This document shows, piece by piece, positions 843-59,277 of a stretch of 64,000 nucleotides of DNA. Positions within the stretch are counted from its first letter, which is position 1, and each line of letters begins with the position of its first letter. The DNA is taken from contig JAMCUS010000027.1 in NCBI GenBank assembly GCA_023379385.1, forward strand, positions 11,640-75,639. Direction: 5' to 3'. The notes under the pieces were generated by a model. That model made no database searches. It had not been told where the DNA came from and saw only the letters and a program-made list of their open reading frames with translations. The stretch is from Thermoplasmatota archaeon (GTDB lineage: Archaea; Thermoplasmatota; Thermoplasmata; Lutacidiplasmatales; JAMCUS01). A program made the translations under genes and the position numbers.

Positions 843-3800
843 TTAATGCGTAACTGGTATGTGGATTTTAGGGGGATTTCGGGGTCTTACTATTTTATTT
901 CTGCATACAGGACATATGTATGCAAAAACTGGTATTTCTTTTTGACAAGACGGGCATTTTATTGTTTTTGTTATTTTATTTTTTGTGGTTGTACCCTCGG
1001 TAACATAAGGTCTGCTGTTAAATGTGCCGTCTGGGTAAATATTATTGTTTTTACCATGAAATTGTGTACTGAATGAAGATTGTGGTTGTACCACAGATTG
1101 TTGGTGTAAGCTATACGGTACATTGGATGATATATATTGTCTATGAAAATCATATGGATTAACCCTGTGACTGGTTGTTAGATCTTTACCAACCGGTTTT
1201 GTGTCCCCGATTACCTTTTTATTCTTTGTTATCTTGGATATAATACTTTTACTCTTATCCATATAATTTTTTGCAATTTTAATGGTTTTCTCTCTGTAAA
1301 AGAACATAAGAATGAGTAATACCAATATTATAAAAATGATTATCACAAATATTGCTGATGATTCAAAACTGTTGATTCCTAACTGACCAGTAGTTGCTGA
1401 TACTGGCACAAACGTTATATTTTCCGTTGTGTTTTTATTAACTGTTATTATTCCTGTAGATTGAATTCCTGTTAGTTTATAACCATTTATAGTGGTTATT
1501 GTATAGTTATAACTGCCCATAACCTCCTTAAACGTTATGGAACTGCCAGTACCACTTTTATTAAAATTATTTAATGTTACGTACCATGTCGTGCCACCCA
1601 GCAACCCACTCTCTACGAATGTAACCATGTATACTACTGGTTTTACTGTAGCATAGTCTATTGTTATCTTTACCGGTGCACCTGTTACCTTAAACTGCCC
1701 TGTCGATGGCACTGCACTGTACCCCTGTACTCTTCCTATCGTATAATTGTAGGTACCATTCACTATACTGAACGTTACCGTAGTATTCGTTGAGCTTTCT
1801 GTATATATTGTATTCAATGTAACACTCCATGAACTACCTATAGGCAGCCCTCTCTCTGTAAACTCTACAATATATTTGGACGATATTGTAAAGGTTATAT
1901 TCTCCTCTACATTAGTTCCTTTAACTGCTATAACCCCCGATGACGGCGTCGCTATATAATTTTCATTTTCTATGCTAAACGTGTATGTACCATTTGATTC
2001 CTCAAATGTTATTGTATTGCTGCTTGAACTGCCTGTTATACCTGATAGTATTACGTACCAGGTCGTAGATGAGGGTAAACCTGATTCAACAAACTTTATT
2101 GTATACAGTGACGCAGAGGTAGATCTCCATGCTATCGTTTTGTTGATTGGTGCGCCTGTAATGTTTAAACTGCCTGTGGATGGCGTTGCTATATAATTTG
2201 GAATTGTATTAACTGTAAATGTATAGGTTCCATTCTGCAACATAAACTGAATTGTTGATATAACACTGCTTTTTGTATAACCGTCCACAGAAACAGACCA
2301 GTTCGTACGATCTGGCAGACCTGTCTCATTAAAGGTTACAGTATAGGAGGCCCCTGGTGCCCATGTGATTGTTTCCGTTATGTTTTTGCCACTGACTGTA
2401 ATAGTCCCATGAGATGGTGAAGATACGTATCCAGCTACATATCCAACAAGATAGTTATAGCTACCGTTCAATACCATAAAGATTATATTTTTTGTTCTTG
2501 CGTTATCTATAGTACTGTTCAATGTTACACTCCAATTAGTTCCAGTAGGTAATCCACTCTCTGTAAACGTTACACTGTACGTAAATAAATTAAATGTTAT
2601 AGATTCTGATACAACTGCTCCATTTACCGTAAATGATCCTGATGCCGGACTTGGTGCGTATTCCTTATTCCCAGTCGCTATACTATACGAATACGTTCCA
2701 TTCGGTAATTGAACGGTAATGGTTGTTCCTGTTGAACTTTGAGACGGTTGCCCTGTTATATTGACGTACCATGTAGTTCCAGTAGGTAATCCACTCTCTG
2801 TAAACGTTACACTGTACGTAAATAAATTAAATGTTATAGATTCTGATACAACTGCTCCATTTACCGTAAATGATCCTGATGCCGGACTTGGTGCGTATTC
2901 TTTATTCCCCGTCGCTATACTATACGAATACGTCCCATTCGGTTCACTAAATGTTATTGTACTCGTTGTTGATGAATATGATGCACCGCCTGTTATGTTT
3001 ACATACCATATAGTACCGGAAGGCAATCCTGATTCTGTAAACGTTACTCTGTATGTAACCAAACTAAATGTTATAGATTCTGATACAACTGCTCCATTTA
3101 CCGTAAATGATCCTGATGCCGGACTTGGTGCGTATTCTTTATTTCCTGTCGCTATACTATACGAATACGTTCCATTCAGTTCACTAAATGTTATTGTACT
3201 CGTTGTTGATGAATATGAGTTACCACCTGTTATGTTCACATACCAGATTGTTCCAGTAGGTAACCCACTCTCTGTAAACGTTACCGCATAGGTAGTTGTT
3301 GCACTTCCAAAATTGGCAGTCTCAGATACAGGCCCATTCATTGTAATGCTCACCTGATTAGTTGTTCCTGAATAACTACCCGCACCTGATCCGCTCCATG
3401 ACAGAAACTGGTATCCTGAATATGGCGTTGCTGATATAGATACAGAACTTGCCTCAGTATACCACCCACTTCCAGGTGTTACCGAACCTTCTCCTGCCGG
3501 ATTTTCACTCATTGTCAAATAATACTGCGTCTGGTAATTCACACCCTCATTAACAGGACCACCGTTGACAGTAACCGACGTACTTGATGGGCTGGTTATA
3601 TATTGAACACCACTACCCCCTGATATCGGCGTTTCTATACTGCACGAATATACACCATCAGGCTCATAAAACGTAATTGTAGATGACGTAGACGACTTGG
3701 TAGTACTACCCAGCGTAACCGACCACGAAGTACCAGATGGTAACCCACTCTCTGTAAATGTTACCGCATAGGTAGTTGTTGCACTTCCAAAATTGGCAGT

Positions 3801-5705
3801 CTCAGATACAGGCCCATTCATTGTAATGCTCACCTGATTAGTTGTTCCTGAATAACTACCCGCACCTGATCCGCTCCATGACAGAAACTGGTATCCTGAA
3901 TATGGCGTTGCTGATATAGATACAGAACTTGCCTCAGTATACCACCCACTTCCAGGTGTTACCGAACCTTCTCCTGCCGGATTTTCACTCATTGTCAAAT
4001 AATACTGCGTCTGGTAATTCACACCCTCATTAACAGGACCACCGTTGACAGTAACCGACGTACTTGATGGGCTGGTTATATATTGAACACCACTACCCCC
4101 TGATATCGGCGTTTCTATACTGCACGAATATACACCATCAGGCTCATAAAACGTAATTGTAGATGACGTAGACGACTTGGTAGTACTACCCAGCGTAACC
4201 GACCACGAAGTACCAGATGGTAACCCACTCTCTGTAAACGTTACCGCATAAAGTGGCGCTATATTAAAATTGGCAAACCAGTTATTAAATCCCGTATTAC
4301 TGGATAGTCCAGGTGTTCTAATTTCAAATAATAATCCATAAACTGTATCGGGAGTAAACATATAGGTAAATGTAGTAGAGTAATCTCCAAATTGTTCTGG
4401 CAAATACCCACTTGAAATTATTGTGCCTGTAGATGATAAATTTGCTTCTAATACGTATAAATTATTATTATTAAGATATTGCCAATAATTGATTACTACA
4501 CCTGATAACGGGTTAGACCATAGTCTACTTGCAGTTTCATATCCTTGCACATTAAATGATTTATGTATACTTGTACTATTCCATAAATACAGAGTAATAT
4601 TGTTATTGTTATTACCAGCATTTGGATATCCATTGACGGGTGGATTACCATTAGACCCCCACCCTCCACTAAAAAATGCATAACTTTCGGGTGAATGCCC
4701 CATATACACATTCCATGATTCAAATGCAGAATTGTTATATACAAAATCATGTATTGCCCCATAGACACCATGTGGATAATCTGCCGAACCATCGCCTAGA
4801 GCCCAGAAAGAATAATGGATAATTTTGTTTGATTCCAGTGCGTGTATCCTTTCTGTAATCTCCGATAATGAAAATTGTGAGTTTGTATTTGGGTTTTCAC
4901 CTTGTAATATAATTCCTACTGTAGATATTGGAAAATATGAAAGATCATTCTCCAAGGATTGTAAAAAAGTAGAGAAGTAACCATAATAATCCATGTCATA
5001 AAATATGTTTACAGTAGTTTTTGCAAGATCTTGGTAGTTCCACCACTCTGAATTATACCATGCAATATCTACAGTTATTATAAGTCCATTCTTATGTGCA
5101 TCATTTGAGAAAGTTGTAAGAAAATTTGCATAATCCTGTGCAAATGAAGATGGAATTGAAGCACCCTGTGGTTCCCAATCTATATTATAGCCTGCATACC
5201 CATTGCTTTCAGCAGTAGTTATTGCCTGATTTATAAAACTGGTCCATTCACCTGAATTTGTTACAAAATTGATTACATCAGTATCAGAACCCTCTGCAAT
5301 CATAGGAAATGCATTAAGTCCTAATTCTTTTGCGGTAGATATAACAGGATCTTGACCATAATTTGCTAAATTACCTGCTGAATCTAAGTAAAATTCTTCA
5401 TATGAAACAGCTGTTTCATTGTTTGAGTGTGCGGTTAATTCTGATAACCCCTGTTGAACATTTCCATATATAAATGGCATATATGTATTTTTTAAATTTG
5501 TTCCATCAGGAAATGTATTTAAAGTATTAAGCATATTTTTTGATACCTTAAAATGAGAAATTGAATAATCATTTGAATTATGTGATGTAGGAATCATACC
5601 AACTCTAAAGTTACTTAAAATTAAAAAATAGGTTGAAGAGATTATAACAAAAAATACTATAATAGCTATAATTTTTTTTATTTTTTGTGTATTACTGTAA
5701 CTCAT
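843..5705 (-). CDS. giant bitopic surface protein with an N-terminal TM anchor, a GH18-like glycosidase-like domain (NIDWEP motif), about ten ~85-aa VTFTESGLPxGTxWxV beta-repeats, a C-terminal TM, and a ~170-aa cytoplasmic tail ending in a CPSC-x14-CPVC zinc ribbon
   Basis: 1620-aa ORF. Hydrophobic stretches lie at residues ~12-32 and ~1425-1445. The DWE motif sits in the N-terminal domain. Internal repeats are visible at both DNA and protein level. The C-terminus reads CPSCQKEIPVFAYICPVCRNKI. Confidence 0.6.
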   Translation of the reverse strand: MSYSNTQKIKKIIAIIVFFVIISSTYFLILSNFRVGMIPTSHNSNDYSISHFKVSKNMLNTLNTFPDGTNLKNTYMPFIYGNVQQGLSELTAHSNNETAVSYEEFYLDSAGNLANYGQDPVISTAKELGLNAFPMIAEGSDTDVINFVTNSGEWTSFINQAITTAESNGYAGYNIDWEPQGASIPSSFAQDYANFLTTFSNDAHKNGLIITVDIAWYNSEWWNYQDLAKTTVNIFYDMDYYGYFSTFLQSLENDLSYFPISTVGIILQGENPNTNSQFSLSEITERIHALESNKIIHYSFWALGDGSADYPHGVYGAIHDFVYNNSAFESWNVYMGHSPESYAFFSGGWGSNGNPPVNGYPNAGNNNNNITLYLWNSTSIHKSFNVQGYETASRLWSNPLSGVVINYWQYLNNNNLYVLEANLSSTGTIISSGYLPEQFGDYSTTFTYMFTPDTVYGLLFEIRTPGLSSNTGFNNWFANFNIAPLYAVTFTESGLPSGTSWSVTLGSTTKSSTSSTITFYEPDGVYSCSIETPISGGSGVQYITSPSSTSVTVNGGPVNEGVNYQTQYYLTMSENPAGEGSVTPGSGWYTEASSVSISATPYSGYQFLSWSGSGAGSYSGTTNQVSITMNGPVSETANFGSATTTYAVTFTESGLPSGTSWSVTLGSTTKSSTSSTITFYEPDGVYSCSIETPISGGSGVQYITSPSSTSVTVNGGPVNEGVNYQTQYYLTMSENPAGEGSVTPGSGWYTEASSVSISATPYSGYQFLSWSGSGAGSYSGTTNQVSITMNGPVSETANFGSATTTYAVTFTESGLPTGTIWYVNITGGNSYSSTTSTITFSELNGTYSYSIATGNKEYAPSPASGSFTVNGAVVSESITFSLVTYRVTFTESGLPSGTIWYVNITGGASYSSTTSTITFSEPNGTYSYSIATGNKEYAPSPASGSFTVNGAVVSESITFNLFTYSVTFTESGLPTGTTWYVNITGQPSQSSTGTTITVQLPNGTYSYSIATGNKEYAPSPASGSFTVNGAVVSESITFNLFTYSVTFTESGLPTGTNWSVTLNSTIDNARTKNIIFMVLNGSYNYLVGYVAGYVSSPSHGTITVSGKNITETITWAPGASYTVTFNETGLPDRTNWSVSVDGYTKSSVISTIQFMLQNGTYTFTVNTIPNYIATPSTGSLNITGAPINKTIAWRSTSASLYTIKFVESGLPSSTTWYVILSGITGSSSSNTITFEESNGTYTFSIENENYIATPSSGVIAVKGTNVEENITFTISSKYIVEFTERGLPIGSSWSVTLNTIYTESSTNTTVTFSIVNGTYNYTIGRVQGYSAVPSTGQFKVTGAPVKITIDYATVKPVVYMVTFVESGLLGGTTWYVTLNNFNKSGTGSSITFKEVMGSYNYTITTINGYKLTGIQSTGIITVNKNTTENITFVPVSATTGQLGINSFESSAIFVIIIFIILVLLILMFFYREKTIKIAKNYMDKSKSIISKITKNKKVIGDTKPVGKDLTTSHRVNPYDFHRQYISSNVPYSLHQQSVVQPQSSFSTQFHGKNNNIYPDGTFNSRPYVTEGTTTKNKITKTIKCPSCQKEIPVFAYICPVCRNKIVRPRNPPKIHIPVTH
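2538..3250. repeat. three tandem ~237-240 bp imperfect repeats inside the 1620-aa gene
   Basis: The block agttccagtaggtaatccactctctgtaaacgttacactgtacgtaaataaattaaatgttatagattctgatacaactgctccatttaccgtaaatgatcctgatgccggacttggtgcgtattc recurs at about 2538, 2775 and 3012. Confidence 0.75.
3257..4250. repeat. near-perfect tandem duplication of a 480-bp unit (two copies) inside the 1620-aa gene
   Basis: Positions 3301-3720 are identical base-for-base to 3781-4200. The only mismatch seen is c/t at 3279 versus 3759. The duplication is in frame, and the protein shows a duplicated ~160-aa block. Confidence 0.9.
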
Positions 5706-5990
5706 ACATATGTAACTATTTATAATTAAATATTTAAATATTAGTTGGTTATTACCGTCTTTCCATATAACTTGCTATCCATTAACGATTAGAGGTAGCT
5801 TCATGTAGTTTTATAATATATCATTCTGAATTATACTTTTCTTAGCTTTGGTTTTCCTTATCATCGTTTATTTCTCTGTCTGATCAGGTACACCTCTTGT
5901 TCACATTACTGCTCTTTGTAATGATTAATGCCTATAATAACTAATATTTTATAATAATGTTTATATATCCTGTCTGCATTTACAGTTATT

Positions 5991-6971
5991 ATGGTTGCCG
6001 GAAAGCCTAGACACGGATCCAATGATAAATCAGAAATCCGGGAATGGAAAAGAAGACAGGGTTTTGAAATGCTTAAGAAAGGCATGAAGAAATCAGTTAT
6101 ATCAAAAAAACTTGGAGTTAACCGTAAGACTGTATACAACTGGTCAGTTAAACTGAAACAGAGTGGAGACTGGCATGACAGGAAGCAGCCCGGTTCAAAG
6201 GGTAAACTCACAAAGGATCAGAAAGAGAAACTGAAGAGAATAATAGACAGTGGTCCAAGATCATACGGTTATGATACTGATCTGTGGACATTGAAGAGAA
6301 TATCTGAAGTTATATCAAAGGAATATAATGTAGAATACAACACAACATACATCTGGTGTGTACTGAAAAATTTAGGTTATTAGGCACAGATTCCGGTTGC
6401 AGTGGCCATGGAGAAGAATCCCGAATATGTGAAGGAGGCAAACGAGAAGAATGCAACCATTCTGTTCCAGGATGAATCAGGTGTACAGAGCAGGCCCAAT
6501 GTAAGAAGGACATGGTCAAAGCGTGGAAAGAGGCTAGGAATTAAGGTGGAGGAAAACAGGGGCCGGATATCAATCACCTCAGCTGTAACACCTGACGGTG
6601 GTCTATATTTCATGATAAGGAAGGGAAGCATGGACAGTGAAGATATCATATCCTTTCTGGATCAGCTTCTTTCAGAAATACATGGTTTCCTTTACATGTT
6701 CTGGGATAATATAACAATACACAGAAGCAGGATTGTGAAAGATTTCCTTGAAACAAACAATGACAGGCTGATAATCAGGAGAATCACTGCATATTCTCCT
6801 GAACTGAACCCGGATGAATATGTGTGAAATGCCTTGAAATATCAGGAACTGCCAAATTTCTGCCCTGCTAACATGGATGATCTTAAAAATAGGGTTATTT
6901 CAACCATGAACAAGCTAAAAAGTGATCCAGAAAAACTGAGAAACATCATAGGGGTTCTAGCCTTCCCCTGA
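5991..6971 (+). pseudogene. IS630/Tc1-mariner family transposase, one reading frame interrupted by two in-frame stops
   Basis: The N-terminal HTH part (5991-6383) and the DDE part (6402-6827) are in the same frame, separated by TAG at 6384-6386. A second in-frame TGA at 6825-6827 sits where IS630 transposases carry a conserved Trp (...YSPELNPDEYV*NALK). The frame then continues to TGA at 6969-6971. Local GC is visibly higher than the surroundings. Confidence 0.7.
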
Positions 6972-7056
6972 CGCCAATTATGGGAAAGAATTAGAGGAAA
7001 GTAGAATAGTTAAAAAATAAAAATACATAATGGATAAATATAAATTTGGTAAAGGG

Positions 7057-7878
7057 TTATAATTCTCTATTTTCTGAGTCATCCTCTGTTTTGCTATTTT
7101 TTCTTTTTTGCGTCGTTTTAACAAAAAAGAATACTAGCAATGCCGCAAATATTATAGCACCTATAACAATACCACTTTCCAACAACATATTTACATTGGT
7201 TGATGAAACGGTATTTGTATTAGTAGAGGATGACCCTCCTGTACTGTTACCTGGGTTGTTATTGCTTGTTGCAAACGTTACGGACTTTGACAATGCCGTA
7301 CCATTCACTACTACAGTTCCTGATGATGGCGTCGCTGCATAGCCTGATACGGACCCTATAGTGAATGTATATGAACCATTTACTTCTCTGAATGATACTG
7401 TCCCTGATCCTGACGAGGTGGCTCCGTTCAGCGTTACAGAGAAGCTTGTCCCTGATGGCAATCCCGATTCTACAAACTGTACTACATAGGTTGTTGGAGA
7501 GGTGCTGTTACCTGTTCCGTTGCCACCTCCCGTTCCATTGCCACCTCCCGTTCCGTTACCGCCTCCCGTTCCGTTACCGCCTCCCGTTCCGTTACCGCCT
7601 CCCGTTCCATTGCCACCTCCTGTTCCATTGCCAAAAATAGAGATTGCTGGAATGGTAGTATATACTTTGACAATTAAATTTGCAGGAACTTTGCATATAT
7701 TACTGTAATTAATTCCAATACTAGAGTTATGAGAGATAAAAAAGAGACTTCCACTTGCACCTGTACCTAAAATTATTACCAATAGCATTATAGATAAATT
7801 TTTTAATGGTTTTCTTTTCCAGTCCTTTTCTATAGACACATTTCTTTTTCTTATTTCTTCATAATTTACATTTTTCAT
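7057..7878 (-). CDS. bitopic surface protein with N-in TM, a (GNGTGG)7 low-complexity linker, a VQFVESGLPSGTSFSV beta-repeat domain, a Ser/Thr-rich stalk, and a C-terminal TM with a short acidic tail
   Basis: 273 aa. Hydrophobic segments lie at residues ~30-50 and ~235-255. The repeat domain is related to the repeats of the 1620-aa protein. Confidence 0.55.
   Translation of the reverse strand: MKNVNYEEIRKRNVSIEKDWKRKPLKNLSIMLLVIILGTGASGSLFFISHNSSIGINYSNICKVPANLIVKVYTTIPAISIFGNGTGGGNGTGGGNGTGGGNGTGGGNGTGGGNGTGGGNGTGNSTSPTTYVVQFVESGLPSGTSFSVTLNGATSSGSGTVSFREVNGSYTFTIGSVSGYAATPSSGTVVVNGTALSKSVTFATSNNNPGNSTGGSSSTNTNTVSSTNVNMLLESGIVIGAIIFAALLVFFFVKTTQKRKNSKTEDDSENREL
7507..7632. repeat. 18-bp tandem repeat x7 (cctcccgttcc[a/g]tt[g/a]cc[a/g]) encoding (GNGTGG)n on the minus strand
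   Basis: Read directly from the sequence. It is a GC-rich island in an AT-rich gene. Confidence 0.9.
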
Positions 7879-7959
7879 TCTACATTCACCTTGAATATAT
7901 AAGCTTTAGACACCTTTATATAGTGATGGTGAAGATACACCGTAGATACATCAAAAAAT

Positions 7960-7980
7960 AACGTATTTATGACGTATTTA
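7960..7980. promoter_or_regulatory. 21-nt motif aACGTATTTAtgACGTATTTA (two direct 9-mers), 82-102 bp upstream of the start codon of the 7057..7878 gene
   Basis: Exact 21-mer also present at 11148-11168. Both copies lie upstream of minus-strand surface-protein genes. Confidence 0.5.
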
Positions 7981-8019
7981 GTAGTGTTAGTGTAGAATGC
8001 AGCTAAAATGATAATGTAG

Positions 8020-9324
8020 TCAATTTGTTAGTGTCTGTTGAAGTTCTCTGGCTACTGCCTCACCCTTTTCTGTCAGGTAGTATGTTTTCATTCGTCGTCC
8101 TTTCCCTTTTACGTGTTTGACATCTACTCTGATTAAACCCCTATTCTCAAGTCTTTTGAGAGTATTGGTCAGAACATTCTGCTTTACACCCAGGCTATCA
8201 GCCATACCAATTTGTGTAAAACTTATCGGGGCTATTTCAAGCATATATAGGTTCCCCTGTTTTAGCAGGTGTATAAGAATTTTATCAGATATTTTAAAAC
8301 CACTGTTGTTTGAACTTTTGTTAGAATTTGTAGTTAATGTCGTCTGTAAAGTATCCTGTTTTGTAACAGCTGGTGCCTGTAGTGATATTTCTGTGGAAAC
8401 TTCTTTGTTAGTTGTTGATAATTTTTTATTTCCCCCTCTTTTTTTATAAAAACCAAAACGTAAAAGTAACACTGTACAACCTACACCTATTGCGACACCA
8501 CCTATAATAAATAAAACCAATTGTACAACAGATATAACTAAATTGTTGGAATTTGGTGTTGATATATTGTTAGATGGTGTGGCAACATTAATTATAATAA
8601 AAGCGGAGGTAGATCGATCGCTTGTATCGATCACCGTAAGTGTAGCATTATATCTGCCAGGTCTAAGGTATGTATAATTTATATTTAATCCACTGCCAGT
8701 CCCACCATCTCCAAAATGCCATGTAAACGCAATGTAGGTTCCCGTTCCACCGAAAACACTGCCGTTGAACTGCACGGTAAGTGGTGCAGTTCCATTCTTT
8801 GGATTTGCGTATATGACTAATTTTAATGGGGAATACCATGTATGGATTGATAGAGGTTTACTTGAGAAATTGGTACCACTTACATTTACAGTTACAGTAA
8901 CATTGAAAAATCCAGCTTCAGTATACAGGTGAGATGGCGCAAATGCTGTGCTGCTGTTGAGGTAAACATGATCGCCAAAGTTCCAGGAATACCAGGTAGG
9001 AGTCCCACTAGCTGTCATCATAAAAGATACGAGAAGAGGTATACTTCCACTATGTTTGTTGGCCGTGACGTTAACTGTAAATGTACCTGGCAATAGATAA
9101 GTGAACTTATAGATATTATGACCGATATTATGGTTAAATAGGCTATTTAACTGATTATTACTTATGTTTTTTACTAAATTTACTCTGTTTACAGGTATTG
9201 TTTCTGTATGTATTGTGTATTGGATCAATGGTCCATATGATAATGTGAATAACACCATTACTAGAATTATATAAAAAAGTGTAGAAAAAAAGCCATTTCT
9301 TATTTTATTATTTTTAGTAAACAA
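8020..9324 (-). CDS. bitopic membrane protein with N-in TM, two extracellular PKD-like domains (WxFGDG motifs), a second TM, and a ~150-aa cytoplasmic C-terminal region ending in a winged-helix DNA-binding domain; candidate transmembrane one-component transcription regulator
   Basis: 434 aa. Hydrophobic segments lie at ~14-34 and ~257-285. WNFGDH and WHFGDGG sit between them. The C-terminus ILIHLLKQGNLYMLEIAPISFTQIGMADSLGVKQNVLTNTLKRLENRGLIRVDVKHVKGKGRRMKTYYLTEKGEAVA has the helix-turn-helix plus beta-hairpin wing pattern of MarR/ArsR-like wHTH. Confidence 0.55.
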   Translation of the reverse strand: MFTKNNKIRNGFFSTLFYIILVMVLFTLSYGPLIQYTIHTETIPVNRVNLVKNISNNQLNSLFNHNIGHNIYKFTYLLPGTFTVNVTANKHSGSIPLLVSFMMTASGTPTWYSWNFGDHVYLNSSTAFAPSHLYTEAGFFNVTVTVNVSGTNFSSKPLSIHTWYSPLKLVIYANPKNGTAPLTVQFNGSVFGGTGTYIAFTWHFGDGGTGSGLNINYTYLRPGRYNATLTVIDTSDRSTSAFIIINVATPSNNISTPNSNNLVISVVQLVLFIIGGVAIGVGCTVLLLRFGFYKKRGGNKKLSTTNKEVSTEISLQAPAVTKQDTLQTTLTTNSNKSSNNSGFKISDKILIHLLKQGNLYMLEIAPISFTQIGMADSLGVKQNVLTNTLKRLENRGLIRVDVKHVKGKGRRMKTYYLTEKGEAVARELQQTLTN

Positions 9325-9376
9325 AGAATTTCTACCCTCTTTATATTATATCGATTGCATATTGCTATACCACAAT

Positions 9377-10975
9377 TTATATTTTTTTAAATTCATCATT
9401 AGTCTTTCTGCGATATATACCATTTTCATAAATCTCTGGACTGTTTGTTTGAGCCTTTTGATTATATCCATTTTCATCACCCTTGGGCTTAGGTGATCTC
9501 TTATTCCTCCACCGGTTACCAACGATTACTACAATAACTCCAGCAATTACACCTCCTATTATTCCCATTAACAGGTAATTACCTGTTATAATCGTAGCAG
9601 ATGAGGATTGTTCAGCTGTGTTTATGGCTTTTACTGTTATTACAGCATCATACAGATGCAATGTAATGTTTACAGAGTCTGTAACCATAAGTGACGGATG
9701 GAATATACCTGCGGTAGTATATGTGTGTGTTATATTCATTCCAGGTAACGATGACCCATAATTACCATCCCCAAAATTCCACTGGATAGTGTATGATGGA
9801 ATTCCGCCGTGGATAATTGTCAGAAACGTTACGGTTGACGGTGCATAAGGATTAGATGGTAGTTTTATTGATGTCTGTACAGAAAATGAGCTATTATTAA
9901 TTCTACTGCTTGTATAATTTACTACATAATATATGGACTCATACTGTGCAATATACCCTTCAGAATTCACTGCAATGAGTGATGGTGCAATAGTAACTGC
10001 AGTTGCGTTGGATACTGCAACAGGGTAGGTGTAGTTAAGAAAAACCATGCTAAGTGTAGTTTGTATACTCCGGTTTGCACCGTTACCAAAATTCATTCTG
10101 TAAGTAAATGGAGAATCCAGTGCCAGTGCACTAACAGTGAATTGAATTTTGTCACCTTCTTTAATATAACCTCCGGATGAAATGGCAGTATTAGTGGTCA
10201 GATCTTTTACTTTATAATATGCCAAAAAGAAACTGGATAACGTTCCGTTTGGTGACTTTACACTACTATTGCTTACAGTAACGGTTAGATTCGCATATGC
10301 AGATACGCCTGTATTATCGGTTACTGTCAAGATTACGTCGTAGGTTCCAGCTAACTGATATGTATGTATCGGATTCTCACTGGATGATATGGCTCCGTCA
10401 TCAAAGTTCCATTGCCATTGATACGGAGGTACACCACCTGAGGCACTTCCATTAAATGCCACTGTAAGATTCTTTTGAGATGCAATTCGTATGTATGCAA
10501 TCAGCGTATTATTTGTCTTATTGCCAACAGTAATGGTAATATTAGCATATGCGGTTAAGTTGTTGGAGTCCGTTGCTGACAGGGTTACATTGTAGATTCC
10601 AGCTGACTGATATGTATGTATAGGATTTTCACTGTATGATATGGCTCCGTCATCAAAGTTCCATTGCCAGTAATACGGTGGTGCACCACCTGAGGCATTC
10701 CCATAAAATTGTACTGTTAAGGGTGTAGAACCGTTCATGGGATATGCAGAGGCATATGCAGAAAGTACACTGCTATTACTGGCTATGGCTGATACTGTCG
10801 TAGGAGTTAATGAAGCAGAGTATGGTTGCCTAAATTCTCCATTGATGTTACCGGTAAAAAAGTATGGACTGCCACTTATGATCAGGATTAATATTAGTGT
10901 AAGAACAGATAACTGAACAAATGCTATCGAAATAAACGATCTATTAACATTGCATTTTTTCTTATTTTTATCCAT
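9377..10975 (-). CDS. bitopic surface protein with N-in TM, several PKD-like domains (three WxFxDG motifs), a C-terminal TM and a ~45-aa cytoplasmic tail
   Basis: 532 aa. WQWNFDDGAISYSENPIHTY occurs twice and WNFGDGNYGSS once. The C-terminal hydrophobic segment is followed by RWRNKRSPKPKGDENG... Confidence 0.55.
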   Translation of the reverse strand: MDKNKKKCNVNRSFISIAFVQLSVLTLILILIISGSPYFFTGNINGEFRQPYSASLTPTTVSAIASNSSVLSAYASAYPMNGSTPLTVQFYGNASGGAPPYYWQWNFDDGAISYSENPIHTYQSAGIYNVTLSATDSNNLTAYANITITVGNKTNNTLIAYIRIASQKNLTVAFNGSASGGVPPYQWQWNFDDGAISSSENPIHTYQLAGTYDVILTVTDNTGVSAYANLTVTVSNSSVKSPNGTLSSFFLAYYKVKDLTTNTAISSGGYIKEGDKIQFTVSALALDSPFTYRMNFGNGANRSIQTTLSMVFLNYTYPVAVSNATAVTIAPSLIAVNSEGYIAQYESIYYVVNYTSSRINNSSFSVQTSIKLPSNPYAPSTVTFLTIIHGGIPSYTIQWNFGDGNYGSSLPGMNITHTYTTAGIFHPSLMVTDSVNITLHLYDAVITVKAINTAEQSSSATIITGNYLLMGIIGGVIAGVIVVIVGNRWRNKRSPKPKGDENGYNQKAQTNSPEIYENGIYRRKTNDEFKKI

Positions 10976-11147
10976 ATATCTACCCTCTATTTTTCGTTAT
11001 TAGGTTAAAATTATTTTTTCTTTTTCTGATGGCGCTAGTTTAGTCATCATTGGCTTATATCATTTTATCTTATTTCCGTATATCTATAATATTTTTTCAT
11101 CTTTAAATAATGATTGTAAAGATACGCTATAAATACATCAATTTACA

Positions 11148-11168
11148 ACGTATTTATGACGTATTTAT
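11148..11168. promoter_or_regulatory. second copy of the 21-nt aACGTATTTAtgACGTATTTA motif, 173-193 bp upstream of the start of the 9377..10975 gene
   Basis: Exact match to 7960-7980. Confidence 0.5.
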
Positions 11169-11286
11169 CCTCCTGTTTTTAATGTAGACATTATAACCCA
11201 AGGCTTGTACAGATATAGCATGCAAAATTTATAAATAGAATAAAATTCAAATGACGCTTACAGTATATGCATCTGGTGTAAGAATT

Positions 11287-11400
11287 CAGTCGTCTGAAGA
11301 AGTTCAAAAATACTAGCTATCCTTTAATATATGTGTAAATCGCAGCATCTATCATATGAAACAGTAACAATTCTAACTTCAAACCGCTGAACTCTTACCA
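11287..11400. repeat. ~110-bp repeat R1, immediately downstream of the 3' end of the TnpB remnant; IS200/IS605 right-end or omega-RNA-scaffold-like
   Basis: About 90% identical to 20721-20830 (agtcgtctgaag..ttcaaaaatactagctatcctttaatatat.tgtaaatc.cagc.tctat.atatgaa.cagtaacaattctaactt). Its position next to the tnpB 3' end is as expected for an IS605-family right end. Confidence 0.6.
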
Positions 11401-11429
11401 TCTGGTGAATATAGTTGCAATTTTTATGG

Positions 11430-11762
11430 TCATTCATTTACTGAACCTCCATTTAACTTGCCTGATAGCGAACGGAGACTGTATTCTCCCGTCAATCCTA
11501 AGAATTCTAAATTCTTTGCACCTGCATGATCTGCATTATCTACATGACCACATCGCAAACATAAGAAGTTAGCTCCCCTACGATTTCTTCTGTCTATGTT
11601 GCCACATTCAGGGCATCTCTGCGATGTCTTCCAGGGGTCTTTGCGATATACGGATATCCCAAGCTCTTCACATATCTGCTCTAACCGATTGCCGACCCTG
11701 GCATAATGCCAGAAAGACAGAAGTCTGTTTACCCCACGTGAAAACCTTCCACGTTTATTCAT
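11430..11762 (-). pseudogene. tnpB: TnpB (IS200/IS605 OrfB) C-terminal remnant carrying only the RuvC-III and zinc-finger region
   Basis: 110 aa containing ...TSQRCPECGNIDRRNRRGANFLCLRCGHVDNADHAGAKNL. Full TnpB is about 400 aa. The frame ends at the nfo stop codon, so the N-terminal ~300 aa are missing. Confidence 0.65.
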
Positions 11763-11779
11763 CGTGACATTTTTTAAAA

Positions 11780-12640
11780 CTACTGAATTTTTCTCAATTT
11801 TTTTAATAATTCAAGATTTTTTCTGTAATCCTCCAAATCACCGGGCGTCTCCAGGTACATGGGTTTTTTTGCAAATCTTTGATCATTCACTAAAAGTTCA
11901 AATGGTTTCAAGCCAATGTATCCTTTACCTATATGCTCATGTCTGTCCACATGGCTACCTACACCTGTTTTTGAATCGTTTAAATGGAAAGCCATAACTC
12001 TATCAAGTCCTATCACATTATCAATTTCTTTAAATATGGTTTCATATCCGGATTCCGTTCGTATGTCATATCCTGCGGCAAATATGTGGCAGGTATCTAC
12101 GCATATGCCTATTTTCTTGCTATCATTTGCAATATTCATTATTCTGGCTAAATCCGAAAATCTGAACCCTATATTGGACCCCTGGCCCGCTGCTGTTTCA
12201 ATAAGCAGGTTCATATGATATTTTTCAAAGAGAGGAACAACATCTTTTAACGTATCACCGCACATTTTTACTCCATTATCCAATCCGGCATCAAGATGAG
12301 ATCCGGGATGGAATATCAGGTAATCCAATCCTAGCTGCTCAACTCTGTTTATCTCGTCTATTAAAGCGGTTTTTGATCGTTCATGTACATCCTTTTTGGC
12401 AGTAGCAATATTGATGAGATATGCCGCATGGGCTGCACTGCTGGATAGTTTCATTTCCTTCATTTTCAGTTTAAATTTTTCTGCACTTTCTAAAGTTATC
12501 GGTTTATCGCCCCAGCTCCTCTGATTTTTAGAAAACATCTGGATTACTTCACATCCAATTCCTGCGCCTCTTTCAGGAGCTAACACAATAGACCCTGCTA
12601 TGGAAACATGTGCACCAAGCATTTTTGCCATCTCCGGCAT
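11780..12640 (-). CDS. nfo: endonuclease IV (AP endonuclease, xylose-isomerase-like TIM barrel)
   Basis: The conserved N-terminus MLGAHVSIAGS... begins near the MPEMAKM start at 12640; the ORF could extend to 12775. It also carries the HxxY.N...G.C.DTCH pattern and C-terminal YLETP. Confidence 0.7.
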   Translation of the reverse strand: MPEMAKMLGAHVSIAGSIVLAPERGAGIGCEVIQMFSKNQRSWGDKPITLESAEKFKLKMKEMKLSSSAAHAAYLINIATAKKDVHERSKTALIDEINRVEQLGLDYLIFHPGSHLDAGLDNGVKMCGDTLKDVVPLFEKYHMNLLIETAAGQGSNIGFRFSDLARIMNIANDSKKIGICVDTCHIFAAGYDIRTESGYETIFKEIDNVIGLDRVMAFHLNDSKTGVGSHVDRHEHIGKGYIGLKPFELLVNDQRFAKKPMYLETPGDLEDYRKNLELLKKLRKIQ

Positions 12641-27330: not shown

Positions 27331-27440
27331 TTTCTGTAATATAACTACATCTATTAGTAGCCTATCAGTTAACTTTTGTTAGCAAGTTCTACAGTATGTA
27401 AAAAGGATAATTTATAACGTATTTATAAAGTTGTGGAAGC

Positions 27441-58746: not shown

Positions 58747-59277
58747 TTATTGATTTTTTATTACCTTTTTGCCATGTGCCGTAGGAATTATTTTTAATTG
58801 GGATTTATTGAAAAGGCTATTACGCATAGATTCTGGAAAAAGATCGTATAGAAAAATAGCTAATGAGGAGACCTCAGAATGTGGTTGATTCATTATAGCA
58901 ACGTTAAAAGTTGCCTTCTTATATACGTCAGAAGGTACTTTTTCAGCACCTACAATTATCAAAAGATCTCTGTTGTTTATTGTTGATAAGATCTCATCTT
59001 TTACTTCAGGAAGTGGTATTCCATACATGGTCAAATGTACAATTACACCATTCCAGCTCTCTATTAATTTTCTCCAATTATTTACGGATGAAACAATAAA
59101 ATCACCACCGAATCGTTTATTCACCTCTTCAATGGTTTTTTTGATGTTTTCGTCATGCTGATGGATGTAGATGGTAGTAGCTCCAAATGCTCGTGCCACT
59201 AAAGCAACATGTGTAGTTATTCGTTTATCTCTACCGTATCTATGACCTATACGTAATACAGTTATAGTCAGATCAAA
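58747..59277 (-). CDS. tRNA (cytidine56-2'-O)-methyltransferase aTrm56 (SPOUT)
   Basis: LRIGHRYGRDKRITTHVALVARAFGA...WNGVIVHLTMYG...LLIIVGAEKVP...NVAIMNQPHSEV matches aTrm56. The conserved N-terminus lies upstream of the first GTG (59199), and no ATG/GTG/TTG exists between it and the in-frame stop at 59278-59280. Confidence 0.6.
   Translation of the reverse strand, partial: FDLTITVLRIGHRYGRDKRITTHVALVARAFGATTIYIHQHDENIKKTIEEVNKRFGGDFIVSSVNNWRKLIESWNGVIVHLTMYGIPLPEVKDEILSTINNRDLLIIVGAEKVPSDVYKKATFNVAIMNQPHSEVSSLAIFLYDLFPESMRNSLFNKSQLKIIPTAHGKKVIKNQ

Follow-up and report, generated by a model that had tools for sequence, protein, structure and literature searches.

The DNA analysed here, a 64-kb stretch referred to as the window, comes from an uncultivated organism represented by a MAG and carries a gene for a 532-aa surface protein, followed by the genes of a 434-aa putative transmembrane transcription regulator and of a 273-aa surface protein (Table 1). 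The 532-aa protein has a signal or anchor at the N-terminus, three or more PKD domains and, at the C-terminal end, a transmembrane (TM) helix with a short tail in the cytoplasm; its sequence contains 22 N-glycosylation sequons. Its gene is the putative first gene of an operon; the 434-aa gene begins 52 nt behind it, with a TTG start and a Shine-Dalgarno-like AGAGGGT. The two genes probably form one operon, and the regulator would therefore control itself. The 273-aa protein has a TM segment at either terminus, a GNGTGG repeat and a single FVESGLPSGTSF-type domain. No equivalent of its gene lies behind the regulator gene in the related loci L059 and L060, and it is regarded as a putative second target, found in the window's lineage only. 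The surroundings include a TnpB remnant, separated from site 2 by 263 nt, and an IS630-type element, which is about 1.1 kb away from site 1 and about 230 nt past the 273-aa gene.

Table 1. Genes and promoter elements of the locus, in window coordinates; sites 1 and 2 correspond to modules 1 and 2.
Feature	Position	Strand	Remarks
273-aa surface protein	7057-7878	-	from hydropathy and sequence
promoter module 1	7895-7980	-	upstream of 273-aa gene; 40 nt past the wHTH stop codon
TATA-like box, site 1 (TATATAAA)	7915-7922	-	9 nt past GTATCTT; about 36 nt before ATG 7878
proximal direct tandem, site 1	7933-7950	-	P3 7944-7950 TGTATCT; P4 7933-7939 TGTATCT
21-mer copy 1	7960-7980	-	P1 7972-7980; P2 7961-7969
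434-aa putative transmembrane transcription regulator	8020-9324	-	from layout, profile, AF2 and Foldseek
532-aa surface protein	9377-10975	-	Pfam PKD_4 4.8e-41; hydropathy
promoter module 2	11082-11167	-	P1-P4 and TATA-like box; upstream of 532-aa PKD and TM-wHTH genes
TATA-like box, site 2 (TATTTAAA)	11102-11109	-	9 nt downstream of GTATCTT
proximal direct tandem, site 2	11120-11137	-	P3 11131-11137 TGTATTT; P4 11120-11126 CGTATCT; 11 bp apart
21-mer copy 2	11147-11167	-	P1 11159-11167; P2 11148-11156; gene sense TAAATACGTCA TAAATACGTTG

The 434-aa protein is composed successively of: (i) a short cytoplasmic N-terminus; (ii) TM1 (about residues 12-34); (iii) two extracellular PKD domains; (iv) TM2 (about 262-292); (v) the sequence YKKRGGNKK and a linker of about 50 residues; (vi) a C-terminal winged helix-turn-helix (wHTH) domain (about 345-434). 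Our own hydropathy calculation, used in place of a dedicated topology predictor, placed two hydrophobic stretches at about residues 10-38 and 259-292. The wHTH is predicted to be cytoplasmic because YKKRGGNKK, following the second segment, fits the positive-inside rule; the 13 N-glycosylation sequons lie mostly between the two segments. Transmembrane transcription regulators (TTRs) are defined by a predicted DNA-binding domain plus at least one TM region (PMC10269533), and both are found in the 434-aa protein, with the DNA-binding domain on the cytoplasmic side. That domain is C-terminal, and no Pfam match to Trans_reg_C was obtained for the protein.

Pfam HxlR, Crp, PadR and MarR match weakly at residues 366-430, and the profile match of the winged helix to SlyA reaches an E of 1.3e-7. 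In the AF2 model (pLDDT 88.4) the winged helix-turn-helix core is present (H17-28, H43-50, H54-66, E70-77, E83-89, H91-105), preceded by a low-confidence linker to the TM helix. The top Foldseek matches are the MarR-family proteins ZitR, MepR and SlyA, with a query-normalised TM-score of about 0.6 and an rmsd of 2.7-3.0 over about 90 columns; the target-normalised scores are only 0.43-0.49 for MarR-family targets of 124-152 residues. The C-terminal domain is thus modelled with confidence as a MarR-like winged helix behind a TM helix, and these are its best sequence and structural relatives. MarR, SlyA and MepR are soluble proteins of about 140-150 aa that dimerise through N- and C-terminal helices and bind palindromes, and autoregulation of the own operon is typical of the family. 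Here, in contrast, the domain comprises about 90 residues (the core and one C-terminal helix) on a membrane protein; the helices of a MarR-type dimer interface were not found in it, and the best-conserved sites are direct repeats.

A preliminary description of this DNA drew attention to a 21-mer repeated upstream of both surface-protein genes. AACGTATTTATGACGTATTTA does occur twice without mismatch and has no third copy in the window; the identity ends at 21 nt, the flanking bases of the two copies being different. The first copy and its distance of 82-102 nt from the start at 7878 had been placed correctly, whereas the second lies at 11147-11167 rather than 11148-11168, and 172-192 nt, not 173-193, from the start at 10975. 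As described, the tandem is present nowhere else in the window: the 20-nt pattern ACGTATTTA-NN-ACGTATTTA has two exact matches only. At up to three mismatches it gives 3 matches against 0.23 expected, and 0 of 100 shuffles reach 3. The single half-site noted near 27415 is the 9-mer at 27417-27425, the fifth copy besides four at the two sites; it was rejected as a target and is treated as a chance occurrence, because it has neither partner units nor a proximal pair and 0.94 copies of the 9-mer are expected.

The 21-mer represents the distal end of an 86-nt direct repeat (78% identity), the two modules being about 71% identical outside it. With 21 of 21 positions identical against about 71% elsewhere, it is therefore the best-kept part of a duplicated promoter, and its perfect identity is due in part to the duplication of the promoter as a whole. 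Each module contains four YGTATYT units, two distal inverted and two proximal direct, followed after 9 nt by a TATA-like box. In gene sense the order is P1 and P2 (inverted), about 17 bp, P3 and P4 (direct, 11 bp apart), 9 nt and TATA; the distal inverted units have offsets of -39 and -28 from P4, and both sites read YGTATYTT-N9-TATWTRAA. The window has four YGTATYT-N4-YGTATYT tandems without mismatch, a pair at each promoter in mirrored orientation; at up to one mismatch chance predicts about 0.8 matches, and the shuffles all stayed below 5. The tandem 9-mer first taken for the operator is hence part of an operator-like site, but only its distal and less conserved half. If transcription starts about 25 nt past the TATA-like box, the units would span about -40 to -86. 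In contrast to site 1 and to the ortholog sites, site 2 is separated from the annotated ATG by about 125 nt; module 1 contains a T6 run. No units were found in the upstream region (5706-5990) of a 1620-aa surface-protein gene. Phased units at 59224-59252, upstream of the aTrm56 gene, were rejected as a target, as their tandem scores (14.0 and 13.6) fall below the mean shuffle maximum of 14.3.

Ten strain-level contigs (L049-L058) contain the 21-mer motif and are at least 99.2% identical to the window, and are therefore uninformative on selection. The databases hold no relatives closer to the window's regulator than the species compared here, whose proteins are 35-40% identical and whose GC-rich genomes differ greatly from the window in GC content; a metagenome scan with the wHTH profile yielded one partial locus (L061) with the gene pair present and the promoter missing. 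In 8 of the 10 distant species, a promoter of the cluster carries GCGTATC-N4-GCGTATCTT-N9-TATTTGAA or a close variant, the unit being CGTATCT in most relatives and YGTATYT in the window. All 13 promoters possess an AT-rich octamer 9 nt after the proximal unit (TAT[AT]T[AG]A[AG] in 7 of 13). Exact CGTWTC-N5-CGTWTC matches in 242 kb number five, all at cluster promoters on the operon strand; of five one-mismatch matches, three are likewise at cluster promoters on that strand and a fourth is the inverted distal pair of L071, whereas shuffles of the 242 kb give 2.3 matches at up to one mismatch. When about 128,000 positions are scored with a matrix derived solely from 19 ortholog units, the window's four tandems take ranks 1-4, with 7933-7950 first and 11120-11137 second; 0.36 shuffle matches are obtained at that score. 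Sequence comparison identifies the proximal pair, GCGTATC-N4-GCGTATCTT at 9 nt from the TATA box, as the core shared by the family: a direct repeat of 11-bp spacing with inverted partners 17 and 39 bp away, centre to centre.

These data bear on the possibility that the element is a mobile or dispersed repeat (an IS end, a MITE or a TnpB-associated RNA region) or an RNA hairpin or terminator, with no operator function. The TnpB and IS630-type sequences near the two sites would suit the former. The four units can fold as a hairpin (z-scores -2.0 to -3.2), and the position of site 1 just behind the regulator's stop codon, together with its T6 run, would suit a terminator. The hairpin potential, however, follows from the mirrored arrangement of the units as an imperfect palindrome and is not conserved where the distal units are missing; the conserved part, a direct pair, cannot form a hairpin, and no known RNA family (Rfam) matched in 7000-12000. 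Only two copies of the motif exist in 64 kb, both at promoters and none at the IS630-type element, and ortholog promoters share it, so neither of the two outcomes that would have spoken against a promoter element (dispersal, as judged over these 64 kb, or absence from orthologs) was observed. A link to TnpB or IS630 was rejected, since orthologs without such elements nearby have the same promoter, with its fixed 9 nt to the TATA box. In 596 Gb of species-representative genomes, the window's own genome not being among them, ACGTATTTA-NN-ACGTATTTA was found in 48 stretches of unrelated taxa, about the chance rate (estimated at roughly 17 or more); in one Verrucomicrobiota MAG the pattern is that genome's own dispersed repeat. 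An origin of this kind is very improbable.

The distal units are the least conserved part across species: they are absent or unconvincing in L062, L064, L069 and L071b, and L068 retains a degenerate proximal unit only. Together with the homology of the whole 86 nt and the uninformative strain contigs, this would allow the 21-nt identity to be a remnant of recent promoter duplication or gene conversion, the distal tandem being functionless and only the proximal pair of importance. On the other hand, a 21/21 run against the 71% background has an estimated probability of roughly 0.03-0.05, and an inverted unit is found exactly at the window's offsets in 6 of 10 motif-bearing ortholog promoters, at -39/-38 in L059, L060, L067 and L071a and at -28 in L073 and L075, for which we estimate a chance of about 1e-5 or less. 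L071 also has the distal inverted tandem. The distal unit of L073 and L075 is GAAACG, which matches the proximal variant of L075 (GCGTTTC in the pair GCGTAAC/GCGTTTC) and one of the two proximal units of L073 (CGTTTTC in the pair CGTTTTC/CGTATCT). A functionless distal half is accordingly considered improbable.

The regulator belongs to a family of about 95 clusters of 350-460-aa proteins, most of them aligned over the full length and mostly from Thermoplasmata MAGs. A search of a 50%-identity library with the winged-helix profile gave 571 representatives at E<=1e-10; the matches listed have the winged helix at the C-terminus almost without exception, and a TM segment is present in each of the 46 newly listed proteins of 300-520 aa. 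The ectodomains of these C-terminal winged-helix membrane anchors range from almost none to about 900 residues; small paralogs that are soluble or only minimally anchored are also numerous in the winged-helix subfamily. The 10 distant loci all have the regulator gene clustered with PKD surface-protein genes on the same strand, as a rule immediately after one of them, and a PKD gene precedes it in most related loci. In L071 two motif-bearing promoters flank the regulator gene, independently of the window. The recognition helix, (K/R)QNxLTNVLRRL, is near-invariant; it is altered in P0144 (GQSAISRVLRRL) and P0140 (RQNVISNVLRRL), and the promoter units are altered in both.

The proposal that an operator-like site is common to the two surface-protein genes, and possibly bound by the adjacent TM wHTH protein, is thus supported by the comparative evidence, and the membrane-anchored regulator most likely binds the four-part site. 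Alternatively, the site may be a genuine cis-regulatory element bound by a different, unlinked transcription factor, the membrane wHTH protein being co-regulated cargo or having other targets. The regulator is a putative binder proposed from sequence, and the small paralogs could share its specificity. Head-to-tail binding to 11-bp direct repeats is also unusual for a MarR fold, because proteins of the MarR type usually contact palindromes as dimers, which depend on helices missing from the 90-residue domain. Against an unlinked binder, the motif accompanies the regulator gene in about 10 species and in differing gene neighbourhoods, proteins with altered recognition helices also have altered units at their promoters, and autoregulation is the usual reason for a conserved site before a regulator's own operon. 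An unlinked factor is for these reasons judged unlikely.

Our main reading, with a probability of about 0.66, is that a transmembrane one-component regulator controls its own expression through this element, a four-unit operator with a probably activating role. This operator would lie just upstream of BRE/TATA, and its promoter would drive the 532-aa PKD gene and then the regulator gene. The cytoplasmic winged helix would bind the units, with the protein either in the membrane or after release, and the bound regulator may assist the loading of TBP/TFB at a weak TATA box, so that autoregulation would be positive. What speaks for promoter binding by the membrane-bound protein is the joint conservation of operator and regulator. 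The regulator's activity could be set by its PKD domains outside the cell, possibly by way of the PKD protein expressed with it. A copy of the complete 86-nt promoter would have been placed before a third surface-protein gene in the window's lineage, bringing that gene into the regulon.

Activation rather than repression is probable, and is inferred only from the position of the units and the weak TATA boxes, which are poor in the GC-rich orthologs (TTCTTGAA, CAAATTAA, TTTTTGTC), as expected of activator-dependent promoters. A repressor or dual-function site, through which the regulator would silence or modulate its own operon as well as the 273-aa gene, is less probable, although most characterised MarR-family proteins are repressors, the imperfect palindrome could be looped or occluded, and no more than about 3 nt separate the end of P4 from the expected BRE position. 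All units, however, are upstream of BRE/TATA, none overlaps the TATA box or the expected start, and the layout is that of the archaeal activators ArnR (-43 to -84) and EarA.

ArnR and ArnR1 of Sulfolobus acidocaldarius are membrane-bound one-component activators of the archaellum promoter, and two ArnR boxes at -43 to -84, upstream of BRE/TATA, are needed (PMC6396743). The likeness consists in an archaeal, membrane-anchored factor acting on surface-structure genes and in P1-P4 occupying the same zone upstream of the TATA-like box, the transcription start being inferred here. The comparison is one of architecture, not of sequence homology, and the architectures themselves differ. ArnR has an N-terminal HTH, a cytoplasmic HAMP-like and sensor domain and two C-terminal TM helices, and its boxes are inverted TCGAC-N5-GTCGA (PMC6396743); in the present Thermoplasmata protein the order is TM, PKD, PKD, TM and C-terminal MarR-like wHTH, and the YGTATYT units form a 2+2 mirrored arrangement. 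For EarA of Methanococcus and Pyrococcus, four TACATA copies upstream of BRE/TATA are required for activation of the archaellum operon, as cited in PMC6396743. Several unit copies upstream of BRE/TATA in a surface-structure operon are thus common to both systems, while EarA is a soluble protein of another family, with units of different sequence and arrangement.

The bacterial TTRs ToxR, TcpP and CadC (PMC10269533) likewise join an extracytoplasmic sensor, a TM segment and a winged helix in one polypeptide, and they recognise helically phased direct repeats beside the core promoter, as is proposed here; ToxR and TcpP are often co-encoded with a membrane partner (ToxS, TcpH), a place taken here by the PKD protein. 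Unlike these bacterial proteins, which have an N-terminal OmpR/PhoB-type winged helix and work with the bacterial sigma-70 RNAP, the present regulator has a C-terminal MarR-like domain, a second, N-terminal TM segment or signal anchor, and an archaeal TATA/BRE promoter. A broader interpretation, offered tentatively and at less than even odds, is that of a self-contained outside-in signalling module of Thermoplasmata, in which the membrane-spanning PKD-ectodomain protein would directly activate its own operon and further surface-protein genes through the four-unit operator; contacts made by its PKD domains, be it with neighbouring cells, the cell envelope or the PKD partner expressed alongside, would set its activity.

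To our knowledge, studies of membrane-bound transcription factors in archaea are scarce; the characterised examples cited here are ArnR and ArnR1, and environmental sensing by uncultivated Thermoplasmata is, as far as we know, little understood. Full-text literature searches revealed no description of this protein family or of its site. The present analysis provides a sequence-derived set of a regulator family, an operator with fixed geometry to the TATA box and predicted targets, and it points to regulon growth by whole-promoter duplication, in the window and independently in L071. If the broader interpretation is true, the C-terminal winged-helix membrane anchors would constitute a major, so far undescribed signalling route in Thermoplasmata.

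In silico analysis of the window has located two exact copies of the 21-mer AACGTATTTATGACGTATTTA, a tandem 9-mer motif; both copies reported in the preliminary description are present, with the second lying one base lower than was stated there. As had also been stated, these copies precede the 532-aa and 273-aa genes, since all three neighbouring genes are encoded on the minus strand. A 20-nt pattern with a free 2-nt spacer matches exactly at only these two sites in the 64 kb, and with up to three mismatches it gives three matches against 0.23 expected, a number reached in none of 100 shuffles. The 9-mer half-site occurs five times in the window, four times within the two 21-mer sites and once at 27417. 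The 21-mer forms the distal end of a directly repeated 86-nt module, whose copies before the 273-aa gene (site 1) and the 532-aa gene (site 2) are 78% identical; since these modules are only about 71% identical to each other outside the 21-mer, the latter is the best-kept part of a duplicated promoter.

Coordinates of the promoter modules, genes and neighbouring features in the window
Feature	Position	Strand
1620-aa surface-protein gene	843-5705	
IS630-type element	5991-6827	
273-aa surface-protein gene	7057-7878	-
18-nt tandem repeat in the 273-aa gene	7493-7636	
86-nt module, site 1	7895-7980	
TATA-like box, site 1	7915-7922	
T6 run, site 1	7951-7958	
21-mer, site 1	7960-7980	
434-aa regulator gene	8020-9324	-
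532-aa surface-protein gene	9377-10975	-
86-nt module, site 2	11082-11167	
TATA-like box, site 2	11102-11109	
21-mer, site 2	11147-11167	
110-aa TnpB/Cas12f-like ORF	11430-11762	
Phased units before the aTrm56 gene	59224-59252	

Read in gene sense, the module consists successively of TAAATACGTCA TAAATACGTTR, about 8 nt, TGTATYTAYRG YGTATCTTYAC, 6-7 nt and the TATA-like box TATATAAA (site 1) or TATTTAAA (site 2). Its characteristic features are; (i) four YGTATYT units per promoter; (ii) one orientation for the distal units P1 and P2, which make up the 21-mer, and the opposite one for the proximal units P3 and P4, P4 being nearest the TATA-like box; (iii) an 11-bp spacing within each pair. A scan of the window for YGTATYT tandems revealed four without mismatch and a one-mismatch match at 59224, and YGTATYTT-N9-TATWTRAA is matched at both sites. 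Only site 1 carries a T6 run (gene sense TTATTTTTTGA) between P2 and P3, about 65 nt past the stop codon of the regulator gene, which could be an archaeal termination signal of the 532/434 transcript placed inside the operator of the next gene. At site 1 and in the orthologs about 35 nt separate the TATA-like box from the start codon; at site 2 its distance to the annotated ATG (10975) is about 125 nt, and the canonical start position there offers only ATG-ATA-TAA, followed by a 16-codon uORF (MMTKLAPSEKEKIILT) (10976-11101). This could reflect a rearrangement at the start of the 532-aa gene, or a regulatory role of the leader.

The 434-aa product, the putative regulator, possesses two PKD domains, and its C-terminus gives weak matches to HxlR, Crp, PadR and MarR. 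Hydropathy places TM1 at about residues 10-38 and TM2 at about 259-292, the latter followed by YKKRGGNKK, and most of the 13 N-glycosylation sequons lie between TM1 and TM2; based on these three elements, the PKD domains are predicted to face outwards and the C-terminus to be cytoplasmic. A profile of the C-terminal 92 residues matched SlyA at E 1.3e-7, and the AlphaFold2 model of this domain (51-sequence alignment) is a winged helix with a mean pLDDT of 88.4. Foldseek placed the MarR-family proteins ZitR, MepR and SlyA at the top; since the alignments cover only about 90 of the 135-150 target residues, the domain lacks the helices through which MarR proteins canonically dimerise. Both the 532-aa and the 273-aa product are surface proteins with a double anchor and a wealth of sequons. 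The 532-aa and 434-aa genes, separated by 52 nt and with a Shine-Dalgarno-like sequence ahead of the TTG start of the latter, likely form an operon.

Within the 273-aa gene, the 18-nt tandem repeat (six listed copies) encodes GNGTGG repeats, the number of which appears to vary within the species, as the gene encodes 261, 273, 309, 333 or 339 aa in the strain contigs. Strains also differ in the length of the 1620-aa surface protein (1302 or 1381 aa elsewhere), a difference suggestive of variable FTESGLPSGTSW-type repeats. Between the 273-aa and 1620-aa genes sits an IS630-type element whose transposase is split into an HTH part and a DDE_3 part, and one strain contig (L053) carries an additional IS insertion in this region. 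Directly behind the endonuclease IV gene, 263 nt from the second 21-mer copy, an IS remnant encodes no more of a TnpB/Cas12f-like protein than its C-terminal TNB domain.

The comparison of orthologous promoters, proposed in the preliminary description, has covered ten species-level loci (L059, L060, L062, L064, L067, L068, L069, L071, L073 and L075), a paralog locus (L076) and a partial locus (L061). In all of these, the gene for the regulator is clustered on the same strand with PKD surface-protein genes and usually follows one of them directly. The promoter in L068 has only a degenerate unit. The first-gene promoter contains GCGTATC-N4-GCGTATCTT in L059, L062, L067, L071 (twice) and L073, and ATGTATA/ATGTATCTT in L069; variants have been identified in L064 (GCGTTTG/GCGTTTC), L075 (GCGTAAC/GCGTTTC) and L060, where an inverted unit abuts a single direct unit. 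All five exact matches of CGTWTC-N5-CGTWTC in 242 kb of loci plus the window fall at cluster promoters on the operon strand; of five one-mismatch matches, at a threshold where shuffles give 2.3, promoters account for three and the distal inverted pair of L071 for a fourth. In 13 of 13 promoters the proximal unit is followed after 9 nt by an AT-rich octamer, TAT[AT]T[AG]A[AG] in seven, which in GC-rich genomes is the only plausible candidate for a TATA box. The two motif spans of the distant relative L071 are 4064-4118 and 9431-9447; the first promoter precedes a kelch-PKD/HIT/regulator cluster and the second a PKD gene downstream of the regulator, mirroring the two-promoter layout of the window.

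A matrix derived exclusively from 19 ortholog units, applied as an 11-bp tandem to both strands of the window, ranked 7933-7950, 11120-11137, 11149-11166 and 7962-7979 first to fourth; in shuffled windows, 0.36 positions scored as high as the fourth or higher. Upstream of the aTrm56 tRNA methyltransferase gene, at a distance of 25-53 nt, three phased units (TTTATCT, CGTATCT and CCTATAC) follow one another at 11-bp steps in inverted orientation; their matrix scores are no better than chance level.

The four units have hairpin potential (z-scores of -2.0 to -3.2) because they are mirrored. An origin of the site as a mobile element or RNA is nevertheless very unlikely, given that the window holds just two copies, orthologs that have no IS elements show the same arrangement, the part that is conserved is a direct repeat and the Rfam search gave no match.

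The inverted units of the window lie upstream of P4, starting at 39 and 28 nt from it. Ten ortholog promoters (from the nine loci whose proximal unit is recognisable, L071 contributing two) have been scored for inverted GAWACG with at least 5/6 matches, which was detected at -39 in L059, L060 and L067, at -38 in L071a (6/6), and at -28 in L073 and L075 (6/6); by our estimate, the chance of six in ten is about 1e-5 or less (about 0.01-0.02 per offset, three offsets). The distal unit of L073 and L075 is GAAACG, so that, with proximal pairs CGTTTTC/CGTATCT and GCGTAAC/GCGTTTC, distal and proximal variants match in L075, and in L073 for one unit only. L071 carries a distal inverted tandem resembling that of the window, and distal units are missing or unconvincing in L062, L064, L069 and L071b among the promoters scored. 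Because inverted units recur at matching offsets in orthologs, the 21-mer is a conserved component, less constant than P3/P4, and it is quite improbable that the distal pair is a functionless remnant of the duplication.

The recognition helix (K/R)QNxLTNVLRRL is near-invariant in proteins accompanied by canonical promoter units. The L068 protein (P0144) has a different helix, GQSAISRVLRRL, and the unit CCTATCGG only; the L076 protein (P0140) has the helix RQNVISNVLRRL and the units GTGTACA/TCGTACT, 9 nt before TTTATAAG. These two cases, anecdotal as they are, fit a matched change in protein and site. Binding of the site by a different factor seems unlikely. L076 comes from the same genome as L067, and its regulator gene lies behind a 1397-aa kelch-PKD gene; QNVISN versus QNALTN in the helix may represent specificity divergence between paralogs.

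Assuming a start about 25 nt past the TATA box, the units are predicted to span about -40 to -86, wholly upstream of BRE/TATA, in the zone of archaeal surface-structure promoters occupied by ArnR boxes (-43 to -84) and EarA sites (PMC6396743). This position, shared with ArnR/EarA, and the weak TATA boxes of the orthologs favour activation, that is positive autoregulation, with a probability of roughly 0.5-0.6 given that the regulator binds the site; under the same condition, repression is the less expected outcome and somewhat improbable. The 11-bp phasing sets the units of a pair on one helix face. A MarR-like core lacking the usual dimer helices could oligomerise on direct repeats via the TM helices or PKD domains, and the protein might act from the membrane or following proteolytic release; transmembrane transcription regulators (TTRs) have been described as acting from the membrane (PMC10269533).

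The source is an uncultivated Candidatus Thermoplasmatota archaeon represented by many assemblies. Identity to the window is at least 99.2% in all strain contigs, and both 21-mer copies are retained wherever the contigs reach, the exception being L055, which ends before the second site. In a representative-genome collection that does not include the source species, the motif scan gave matches only in unrelated taxa and about as often as chance predicts. One Verrucomicrobiota MAG (CAZODO01) carries the same 20-mer as a dispersed repeat on eight contigs (L001, L008-L010, L013, L026-L028), and a Saprospiraceae contig (L022) ends in an 11-bp tandem array of it; since these organisms are unrelated, the identity is coincidental.

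The profile search yielded about 95 clusters of 350-460-aa proteins, most aligned over the full length, none more than about 40% identical to the regulator and, where the source is named, nearly all from Thermoplasmata MAGs. The winged-helix profile (E<=1e-10) found 571 representatives in a 50%-identity library, with the domain nearly always C-terminal among the matches listed. TM segments are present in 46 of 46 proteins of 300-520 aa and 37 of 49 of 170-300 aa among the newly listed matches, and the examples read from the shorter class have an N-terminal TM helix and almost no ectodomain. Many subfamily members (P0189-P0213 and others) of about 200 aa are composed of a TM helix at the N-terminus followed by a proline-rich linker and the winged helix, with hardly any ectodomain, and a few of 850-1100 aa have large ectodomains. 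The membrane-anchored C-terminal winged helix thus seems to be a modular platform.

Membrane-bound one-component regulators are already known in bacteria and archaea (PMC10269533, PMC6396743), and a full-text literature search found no paper describing the PKD-winged-helix family with its four-unit operator. This family combines PKD ectodomains with a MarR-like winged helix at the C-terminus and a putative operator of four units whose distance from the TATA box is fixed. It introduces no new principle; it provides a regulatory module that is solid and testable, from a group of archaea that is still poorly understood.
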